From an uncultured archaeon (GTDB lineage: Archaea > Asgardarchaeota > Thorarchaeia > Thorarchaeales > CAZPUN01), in NCBI GenBank assembly GCA_964589775.1, contig CAZPUN010000026.1:1-32000 (forward strand): 32,000 nt of DNA, written 5' to 3'. Below, in pieces: positions 8,745-22,180 of the stretch. The position numbers were made by a program, and so were the translations under genes. Position 1 is the stretch's first letter. The number at the start of each line of letters is the position of its first letter. The notes beneath the pieces were generated by a model, which was not told the DNA's origin, searched no databases, and worked only from the letters and a program-made list of their open reading frames with translations.

Positions 8745-9425
8745 TTAAATTATTTCGGCTCCGACAATTGCTGCTGGCGGAATGTGAGTTGCGATGAATA
8801 CCAATTTTGCAGGCCTATAGAGCTCAACACCAAGTTCTTTCAGTTTAGATGTAGATATTTCAAACAGCACGACTCGTTTATCAAGTGTATCTTCACTAAT
8901 GTGTCGTCGTGCAACTTCAATGGCGTCATTCTTATTTAGCGACAAATGCACAAATTTACGTTTTTGGGGTAAAATTCCGAGTTCCATGATTATCTTTCGA
9001 TTTCCGATAGGCGAGGCGTGGTAAATTATTTCTGGTGGATGTTTTACAGGTTCAAATCCTAGATCAACATTAATCGAATGACCATAAACGGCACGTATTC
9101 TGTTATTTCGAATTTCAAACCTTCCTTTAGGATCGAACATAGCAATTGCTCGGATGTGATCTGCTTCGAAAGGAATTCCTTTTTTCTTACCAATCCTATG
9201 TGCTACTACATCAATTGTTTCAACAGTAAAGCCATTATGTGAAAGATGGATATTAAATGCACTTGGTTTATGTCTTAAAATTAGTGCGAGAACCTTACTT
9301 AGTGACATTCGGACATCTGGCTTTAGTAAAATTCGAGCTTTTTGTCTACAATGATAAGGTTCTAGTGTAAATTTTCCACAGACTCGACATTGATAAATTG
9401 TAACATTGTTGTCATATTGCGTCAT
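8745..9425 (-). CDS. kptA: RNA 2'-phosphotransferase (Tpt1/KptA)
   Basis: LSKVLALILRH, DPKGRFE, IRAVYGHS, YHAS, RKFVHLS, plus an N-terminal CxxCG...HC knuckle. ATG at 9425 preferred over GTG at 9473. Confidence 0.92.
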   Translation of the reverse strand: MTQYDNNVTIYQCRVCGKFTLEPYHCRQKARILLKPDVRMSLSKVLALILRHKPSAFNIHLSHNGFTVETIDVVAHRIGKKKGIPFEADHIRAIAMFDPKGRFEIRNNRIRAVYGHSINVDLGFEPVKHPPEIIYHASPIGNRKIIMELGILPQKRKFVHLSLNKNDAIEVARRHISEDTLDKRVVLFEISTSKLKELGVELYRPAKLVFIATHIPPAAIVGAEII

Positions 9426-9657
9426 TAAAGAACACCCCAATGCCTCAAAGGAATTTTCGTTTTTAGTAAGCACGCCATGGTTTATATATCTATTTTTTAC
9501 GGTGTTTTCAAAAAATATATTAAAATCGAAAATCTATAAATTCAGTTAGAATTAAGATTCACATTGGGAGAAAGCAACAGCCTTAAATCTTAGTTTTGCG
9601 CTATTAATAAGTGATTATGGGATGGATCATTTTTTCCTTAAGGACAGGTGACTACTG

Positions 9658-21667: not shown

Positions 21668-21956
21668 GACTTTTCCCTCAGAAGGTATGTGACGATTTCT
21701 TAGTATTTATATGTTCCTCGTATGACTGAAAATACAATTTTTAAAAAATTAAATTCTTCTCTTTTTCATTTTAAAAATTTTTTCCTTAATTATTAGAAAA
21801 GTTCCAAAAAATATAATAAAATTATAGAAAAGGCATATTTTGCCTTCTTAATATGTAATATTGCTACATATTTTTAAAAAAGAGAAAAATTTTTATATGC
21901 GAATAGAATGAGCTATCCTTATATGGGATTAATGACAAAATAAATATCAAGAAAAC

Positions 21957-22053
21957 AAAAATGGAGCCCGGGTATATCTTGTTTTGAAGGCCCTCAAACG
22001 AAGTAATCCCAAAAGTCTCCCCTCCTGACCGTTTTTACCCGGGCTCCACCTCT
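21957..22053 (-). ncRNA. Candidate ~90-100 nt structured non-coding RNA of unknown family
   Basis: Perfect 13-bp GC-rich terminal inverted repeat (21962-21974 / 22036-22048). It extends with G-U pairs only on the minus strand. TATA-like TTTAAA at 22073-22078 and a U-tract right after the stem. Confidence 0.6.
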
Positions 22054-22180
22054 TATATTTATAAATCAAAAATTTAAACTTATTATTTTTATAAACGTAA
22101 GACAAACAGAATTAAATAAAAATATATAATCTCCATAAATCAAAAAATGATTGAAAAAAATTCTTTTCAGAATTTAGATT

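Follow-up and report, generated by a model that had tools for sequence, protein, structure and literature searches.

The question raised by this locus is whether a GC-rich hairpin lying in an AT-rich spacer between genes is the mark of an RNA and, if so, on which strand that RNA is read and what it might do. The hairpin belongs to a stretch of 32,000 nucleotides (hereafter the window) of contig CAZPUN010000026.1, from an uncultured Asgard archaeon of the order Thorarchaeales. The host genome, assembled from a hydrothermal-vent metagenome, has 2.16 Mb at 35% GC and carries archaeal markers, namely TBP, encoded in the window, and archaeal signal recognition particle (SRP) RNA and RNase P RNA in the genome. 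An earlier note on this DNA had described the hairpin as an orphan, a structured small RNA (sRNA) candidate read from the minus strand and possibly the RNA component of an adjacent nucleoside triphosphatase (NTPase) gene module. Judging from its relatives, the hairpin is an sRNA gene, a divergent member of an uncatalogued multi-copy family, and this family appears, from the genomes compared, to be specific to the Thorarchaeota-type class of Asgard archaea. That the window RNA belongs to the family and is read from the plus strand we hold with great confidence.

The hairpin and its family

The element is an inverted repeat, TGGAGCCCGGGTA (21962-21974) and TACCCGGGCTCCA (22036-22048), whose 13 base pairs are fully complementary and enclose 61 nt. 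It forms an island of up to 48% GC, in a spacer of 513 bp, against flanks of 15-21% GC, so that the GC-rich island closed by a perfect 13-bp stem is as the earlier note had seen it. Compared with dinucleotide shuffles, both strands fold strongly (plus strand, -31.6 kcal/mol, z -4.0; minus strand, -42.2 kcal/mol, z -4.6). The genome has 42 perfect inverted repeats whose arms are 12 bp or longer and whose spacer is 30-120 nt; the repeat studied here ranks first of the 42 by GC content x length, and most of the others are AT-only. Because of this rank, and because by our own estimate only about 0.003 such GC-rich 13-mer pairs are expected by chance per genome, the hairpin is real and no chance match. 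Both arms are unique within the genome, and contigs of the same strain from two DNA runs showed no variation in the element.

Direct searches returned no relative. Rfam 15 gave no match to the hairpin at the gathering score, and only noise at E<=10 (e.g. snoZ178, MIR408); ARAGORN called no tRNA in it. BLAST with 141 nt against the host genome and 40 relatives matched the AT-rich flanks only. A covariance model built on the single sequence (R1) found nothing, either in the 86 genomes searched within the order or in the 150 searched within the phylum; this negative was a false one, since R1 gave too much weight to a stem that is peculiar to its copy. A search with the exact stem had 0 matches in a collection of genome contigs; among metagenome and viral contigs it found only unrelated hairpins, on contigs of 55-67% GC, that have the CCCGGG-containing arms in common with it by chance. 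Five contigs with closely related accession prefixes (L041, L042, L045, L046 and L047, of JABAOD/JABAOF/JABAOH, ~65% GC) hold an unrelated conserved hairpin of ~72 nt that has the GAGCCCGGGTA arms by coincidence and ACCUGCCGGAAAAAGAUGGUUGGGGCUAAUCGCACGAGGACUGGCAGG as its interior; a pyrimidine-rich tract or T-run comes next in most of them.

The family was exposed by a paralog in the same genome, found by folding the intergenic windows of at least 40% GC and then scanning intergenic DNA for clusters of GGAGG-type words; the BLASTN search for further copies that the earlier note had proposed did not reveal it. The paralog (contig C21, ~157001-157087) has a 13-bp closing stem of wholly different sequence, GGUGAGGGUUGGG with CCCAACCCUUCACC, and an interior of 60 nt. 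Read on the strand of the earlier note, the two copies have in common the words CGGUYAGGAGGGG, UUGAGGGC and AAAACA. RNAalifold on the pair finds compensatory changes in the outer helix (P1) and an inner helix (P2), UUUUG/CAAAA in one and UUUCG/CGAAA in the other, around 23 nt in each. When these two sequences were made into a model (R2), 32 of 39 sister-family genomes gave full-length matches (lowest E 1e-7), which shows that the hairpin RNA is no orphan. It had seemed one by BLAST, by Rfam and by the covariance model of a single sequence, and only the intragenomic paralog exposed its relatives, which is a lesson of method.

We aligned 41 copies (alignment A5), counted pairs on a structure specified by us and built a third model (R3) from the same 41 copies. 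With R3 the RNA is present in all 27 sampled sister-family genomes, at 1-9 copies each, and 123 genomes of other Asgard families yield a single marginal match of 27 bits. The window copy is matched at 21949-22058 (+) with 50.4 bits (E 1.2e-10 for the whole genome) and the paralog, at G000:C21:156990-157095, with 68.9 bits; the window copy is itself one of the R3 training rows, and R2, trained on the two copies of this genome only, recovered the sister-family copies independently. In P1 (14 pairs), changes on both sides were found at 11 pairs, and 92.7% of the cells are paired. For P1 and P2 together, both the covariation score and the percentage paired exceeded those of all 500 shuffles, and the score was 0.377 versus at most 0.146 when the partner columns were slid by 1-3 positions. 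About 50 nt of core are near-invariant across 17 genera, the helix being free to vary. A collection covering 185,579 species has the exact 35-nt core in 86 stretches; among the matches listed, most are Candidatus Thorarchaeota. Structural conservation and covariation in relatives, which the earlier note had named as a check, thus support its structured sRNA candidate, and its orphan becomes a class-wide, multi-copy family, which we did not find in the literature searched.

The family is not uniform. One member in the sister lineage (L078:1397-1542, in G013:C166) has a 55-nt insertion folding into extra hairpins within the P2 loop, and variants also occur at L118, L120, L122, L124, L125 and L099. 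In a second subtype P1 is longer and interrupted (GUGGUC...GGCCAC), and the core reads CUAGUUUUCGUAACAUGCCCUCAU...AACUCCCCCCUCCUACC.

A copy number of 1-9, with several copies at contig ends, could also be that of a selfish or decaying repeat with no cellular function, either similar to a miniature inverted-repeat transposable element (MITE) or a repetitive extragenic palindrome (REP), or the remnant of a mobile element. We find this explanation very hard to sustain. The arms differ between copies and occur once in this genome. Target-site duplications are lacking (the flanking CAAAAA and CCTCTT show no duplication), the neighbourhood has no transposase or integrase, one locus keeps its gene order across genera, and the compensatory changes show selection for RNA pairing. 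Two other readings of the locus were rejected: a coding role for the 21- or 52-codon open reading frame (ORF) that crosses the hairpin is made unlikely by the covariation of the helix and by the indels that separate the copies, and a replication origin with origin recognition box (ORB) repeats does not fit an interior that is not AT-rich and has no repeated boxes.

Strand, promoter and neighbouring genes

On the pyrimidine-rich strand, which is the plus strand of the window, the P1 cells of the 41 copies hold 67 G-U versus 9 A-C, and pairing drops from the 92.7% given above to 82.4% on the complement. Among sister-family copies, 21 of 39 have a TATA-like box 60-89 nt ahead of P1 on the pyrimidine-rich strand, and 0 of 38 have one there on the other; the box typically stands inside AAACTTTAATAAGAA, ~70 nt upstream of P1. 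The window copy has its own box 75 nt before P1 (Table 1), which scores 8.9 bits on a matrix trained on the tRNA, SRP and RNase P genes of this genome, about 1% of intergenic 16-nt windows reaching 8 bits. The G-U excess and the presence of the TATA-like box on that side only make the pyrimidine-rich strand the sense strand.

The earlier note had placed the RNA on the minus strand, in the same orientation as the NTPase module, preceded at 25 nt by a TATA box and ended by a U-run terminator, possibly as a part of that NTPase/GTPase system. When this copy is taken alone, several features speak for such a model. The fold of the minus strand is the better one (-42.2 versus -31.6 kcal/mol); 5 G-U or A-U pairs are added to the stem, and the extension through G-U pairs that had been noticed is in the sequence (GAGGU/AUUUU); AAGTTTAAA lies upstream at the right distance, and a T5GT4 run follows. 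In 39 homologs, however, the 67 G-U pairs become A-C mismatches on that strand and no promoter box is found; moreover, in a spacer of 15-20% GC such as this, TATA-like words and T-runs are no more frequent than the background.

The gene content does not favour a minus-strand module RNA either. The module consists of four minus-strand genes upstream of the RNA. The only Pfam match among its proteins is a weak one of a single protein to CbiA/ParA, below the cutoff, and neither NCBIfam nor PADLOC matches any of the four. Its GTPase has one known homolog, 55% identical, and was not found in the 86 sister-family genomes searched, in the genome-contig collection or in the JGI metagenomes; the gene is thus found in 0 of 86 relatives and the RNA in 27 of 27. 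The C21 paralog lies 13 nt beyond the stop codon of an unrelated gene, of the metallo-beta-lactamase fold, on the opposite strand. One sister-family copy is syntenic across genera, between a radical-SAM gene (in one locus a FAD-binding oxidoreductase gene) and a PhzF-like gene, and the others sit in different gene contexts. Since the paralog and the homologs adjoin unrelated genes, the RNA is not a component of the adjacent NTPase module but is independent of it, and we give the minus-strand model hardly any credence.

It follows that several details of the earlier note were correctly read from the DNA and change their meaning. The TTTAAA box and the T5GT4 run are in the sequence, but they fail as promoter and terminator: the box has no counterpart in homologs and, since homologs put the sense on the plus strand, the run is complementary to an A-rich linker which most copies have in front of P1. 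The AGGAGG resembling a Shine-Dalgarno (SD) sequence is likewise present on the minus strand; with the sense strand being plus, it is the complement of a conserved CCUCCU, and the sense motif is anti-SD-like. The interior pairings AAACGG/UCGUUU, UCAGGAG/CUUUUGG and UUUGAG/UUCAAA were not recovered, the homologs sharing only the inner helix that is UUUUG/CAAAA here. A strand called from one sequence was in this way reversed by homologs, a second lesson of method.

The plus-strand RNA could instead act in cis, as a regulatory leader or riboswitch for a same-strand gene that lies downstream; in the sister family this gene is often PhzF-like and 80-200 nt away. Its architecture, a variable P1 around an invariant core, is aptamer-like, its anti-SD-like sequence could sequester an SD, and a PhzF-like gene lies downstream on the same strand at about half of the sister-family loci inspected. 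Against this, the present genome has two copies of the RNA and no PhzF gene, neither copy has a same-strand downstream gene (each runs towards the 3' end of a gene encoded on the other strand), and elsewhere the RNA is found in unrelated contexts. A riboswitch is accordingly improbable in our judgement. The lack of a PhzF gene and of a same-strand downstream gene excludes both a module-specific RNA and a PhzF leader and, together with the varied contexts, favours a free-standing RNA acting in trans.

The features of the window copy, read on the plus strand, are collected in Table 1, where the promoter is a combined transcription factor B recognition element (BRE) and TATA-like box. The primary transcript would run roughly from 21919 to 22055, or ~135 nt.

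Table 1. Parts of the window copy of the RNA, with positions in the window
Feature	Position	Strand	Sequence and remarks
Promoter	21887-21896	+	BRE/TATA-like box AAATTTTTAT
Predicted transcription start	near 21919	+	
Predicted 5' leader	21919-21961	+	Sequence not conserved; A-rich linker AAAACAAAAA at its end
P1, 5' strand	21962-21974	+	UGGAGCCCGGGUA; perfect 13-bp complement of 22036-22048; homologous helix covaries
P2 hairpin	21982-22014	+	UUUUG (21982-21986) with CAAAA (22010-22014); 23-nt loop
P2 loop motif	21990-21997	+	GCCCUCAA, nearly invariant in A5
C-rich strand, unpaired	22015-22035	+	GUCUCCCCUCCUGACCGUUUU; holds CUCCCCUCCU at 22017-22026 and CCUCCU at 22021-22026
P1, 3' strand	22036-22048	+	UACCCGGGCUCCA
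3' tail	22047-22058	+	CACCUCUUAUAU / CACCUCUU; contains CACCUC; R3 match ends at 22058

Coming from a deep-branching sister family, the window copy is the most divergent member seen. Its P2 aligns to the UUUCGU/ACGAAA of relatives, with a loop of 23 nt where theirs has 14 nt, and shows a U-A to C-G exchange with respect to the paralog. In place of ACCACGAU it has GACCGUUU. The columns of relatives that match the C-rich strand read CUCCCCCCUCCUACCACGAUU and are invariant or nearly so across the 41 copies; within them, the family element CUCCCCCCUCCUACC, unpaired between P2 and the 3' strand of P1, takes in the window the form CUCCCCUCCUGACC (22017-22030). After the helix, ACC(U) is kept in most relatives, CGCC-ACCU being at least 90% conserved in A5.

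The leader is the other variable part. In the window copy its word UGGGAUUA (21924-21931) is complementary over 8 bp to the interior UAAUCCCA (22004-22011), the duplex reaching -13.5 kcal/mol versus -8.3 for shuffles (z -1.9). Leaders of the sister family vary; words such as GGUAGG, GAGGG or GGGCAU, which could pair with the conserved C-rich parts, are frequent in them. The leader of the window copy would pair with a different interior word. Masking of the interior by the leader is a suggestive hypothesis. Just past the RNA, the AT-rich spacer holds short direct repeats, ACCTCTTATATTTATAAA / ACTTATTATTTTTATAAA at 22048-22065 and 22078-22095, as well as ATAAATCAAAAA twice, at 22061-22072 and 22135-22146; these may be remnants of small duplications or low-complexity chance matches.

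A possible anti-Shine-Dalgarno function

The near-invariant unpaired parts of the family are GCCCUCAA and CUCCCC(CC)UCCU, the strand between P2 and P1 reading CUCCCC(CC)UCCU(A)CC. The 16S rRNA of this genome ends in GGAUCACCUCCU, whose last six bases are CCUCCU, and the CCUCCU of the RNA, unpaired in the consensus structure, is identical to this 3' end. SD-like words occur upstream of 28.5% of long ORFs versus 5% in a control region, so SD-dependent initiation operates in this genome. One might then propose that P1 acts as a clamp which guards the ends of the RNA and holds out two near-invariant C-rich single-stranded segments. These segments, which repeat the anti-SD sequence of 16S rRNA, would pair with G-rich, SD-like sequences in mRNAs and so modulate the translation or stability of these mRNAs in trans, and the variable, G-containing 5' leader may mask them until it is removed or displaced. 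Such trans-acting regulation of the anti-SD type is the likeliest role, though pairing with SD-like mRNA regions, the mechanism proposed for known anti-SD-type RNAs, is one that we put forward only tentatively. When strand, family and action are taken jointly, a plus-strand family sRNA acting in trans in an anti-SD manner, independent of the NTPase module, is the best explanation, and we hold it with moderate confidence.

Several observations weigh against this explanation or against parts of it. A target search in this genome revealed no credible extended complementarity before a start codon, and CUCCCCUCCUGACC in the window has two fewer Cs, and a G for an A, in comparison with relatives, which shortens the C-run. 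As P2 hardly varies among the 41 copies, with few consistent variants, its support is mostly conservation. Pairing between leader and interior, set against mononucleotide shuffles, has a family mean z of only -1.0, and z < -2 in 9 of 41 copies. No clean plus-strand oligo-T terminator follows the RNA, the first T5 lying ~40 nt downstream. Finally, that ~50 nt are almost perfectly invariant throughout the class is no less to be expected of a surface bound by a protein or the ribosome than of a pairing seed.

This last point leads to the main rival of the anti-SD mechanism, a scaffold or decoy RNA of a ribonucleoprotein, in which the C-rich segments and the U-rich stretch would bind a protein (e.g. 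KH or Sm-like) or the ribosome. Such an RNA would be expected to look much like what is seen: ~50 nt near-invariant over 17 genera around a freely varying helix, no extended antisense target found, and several copies per genome, each with a strong promoter, as in stable RNAs. On the other hand, no protein gene is consistently linked to the RNA, and neither inspection (kink-turn, C/D and H/ACA boxes) nor Rfam detected a known protein-binding module. We judge the scaffold unlikely, while taking it more seriously than the other alternatives. One might also speculate, at still longer odds, that the RNA is a class-wide mimic of the 16S 3' end, its clamped CCUCCU segments competing for SDs or docking on a ribosomal or initiation factor, and its G-containing leader being a mask removed by processing. 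If this were true, one lineage of Asgard archaea would have a self-gated, global regulator of translation of its own.

The anti-SD explanation has parallels among described RNAs, although Rfam 15 matched no described family, either in the window (E<=10) or at four sister-family loci (E<=1). RsaE/RoxS of Firmicutes, the CcsR or 'cuckoo' RNAs of Alphaproteobacteria and the LhrC siblings of Listeria are C-rich bacterial sRNAs of the anti-SD type. Like the thorarchaeal RNA, they have unpaired C-rich or CCUCC-like loop motifs and sibling copies in a genome; unlike it, they are bacterial, bear their motifs in short hairpin loops and not within a domain closed by a helix of 13-14 bp, and most of them need intrinsic terminators or Hfq. 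Y RNAs and bacterial YrlA are also ~100 nt long, and they too join their 5' and 3' ends in a long stem, enclose a pyrimidine-rich internal loop and exist as several paralogs, but the thorarchaeal RNA has neither their Ro-binding bulged helix motif nor an Rfam match, and this is a resemblance only. The nearest archaeal parallel is sRNA41 of Methanosarcina mazei, presented in PMC5867862 (citing Buddeweg et al. 2017) as an intergenic sRNA that masks ribosome binding sites. As described there, it is trans-encoded and thought to pair with Shine-Dalgarno regions, the mechanism proposed here; in that account its targets and its repression are shown experimentally, whereas the thorarchaeal RNA is known here from sequence alone. 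We found no sequence or structural homology between the two, and the thorarchaeal RNA is multi-copy and clamped by a long terminal helix.

Other classes were considered and rejected. A tRNA-like RNA or acceptor minihelix with encoded CCA shares only 7 bp and the CCA with two tRNAs, and ARAGORN and the Rfam tRNA model were negative. For a C/D or H/ACA guide RNA, inspection showed that the boxes are not in the right place on either strand, and there is no Rfam guide-RNA match; a kink-turn and a selenocysteine insertion sequence (SECIS) were discarded by inspection. The earlier note was right in that the RNA is not a tRNA, C/D-box RNA or SRP RNA, and the Rfam scan it had suggested matched no known family.

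Other structured RNAs and the place of the family

The searches brought up further structured elements in this genome. At G000:C47:1895-1979 (L070:196-280), in an AT-rich spacer, perfect 14-bp arms, TTGAATGCTCGGGG, surround 57 nt dense in plus-strand GGAGG-type words; the minus strand reads CUCCUCC and CCUCUCCUACCUCCUCC, and neither Rfam nor R3 matched it. To judge from these motifs, this may be another anti-SD-type sRNA. A strongly folding repeat has at least five copies (C21:78017-78126, C37:13201-13310, C21:139637-139746, C27:30331-30440 and C23:117129-117238), which share CUCUCCGCGAUGnACUGCGGAGG ... GGCUAUC...GAUAGCC ... GGGAGC; the first four had no Rfam match, and the repeat could be a transposon-associated guide-like RNA. 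A promoter-preceded long-hairpin pair near a contig end (G000:C48:45671-45780, minus strand; -47.5 kcal/mol over 110 nt; no Rfam match) is one more structured-RNA candidate.

Many tRNA genes (e.g. C17:13862-13971, C21:51731-51840, C23:116328-116437 and C12:23212-23317) have non-canonical introns in the T-loop or D-loop and an encoded CCA. As ARAGORN calls only 25 tRNAs, several with an unresolved anticodon, the tRNA set is under-called. This genome, with its intron-rich tRNA genes, also has in the window an ORF at 8745-9473 (minus strand) with a Tpt1/KptA RNA 2'-phosphotransferase domain (Pfam E 4e-22).

Asgard archaea are the closest prokaryotic relatives of eukaryotes, and almost nothing is known of their regulatory RNAs. 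What the window adds is two divergent members of the family, a corrected strand and the refutation of a link to the NTPase module. As both members belong to a deep sister lineage, they show that the indispensable parts are the helix as such, GCCCUCAA and CUCCCCUCCU, and also which parts can change. A strongly conserved, promoter-driven, multi-copy RNA that Rfam lacks, and that is present in all sampled genomes of one Asgard class, offers experiments a concrete target.

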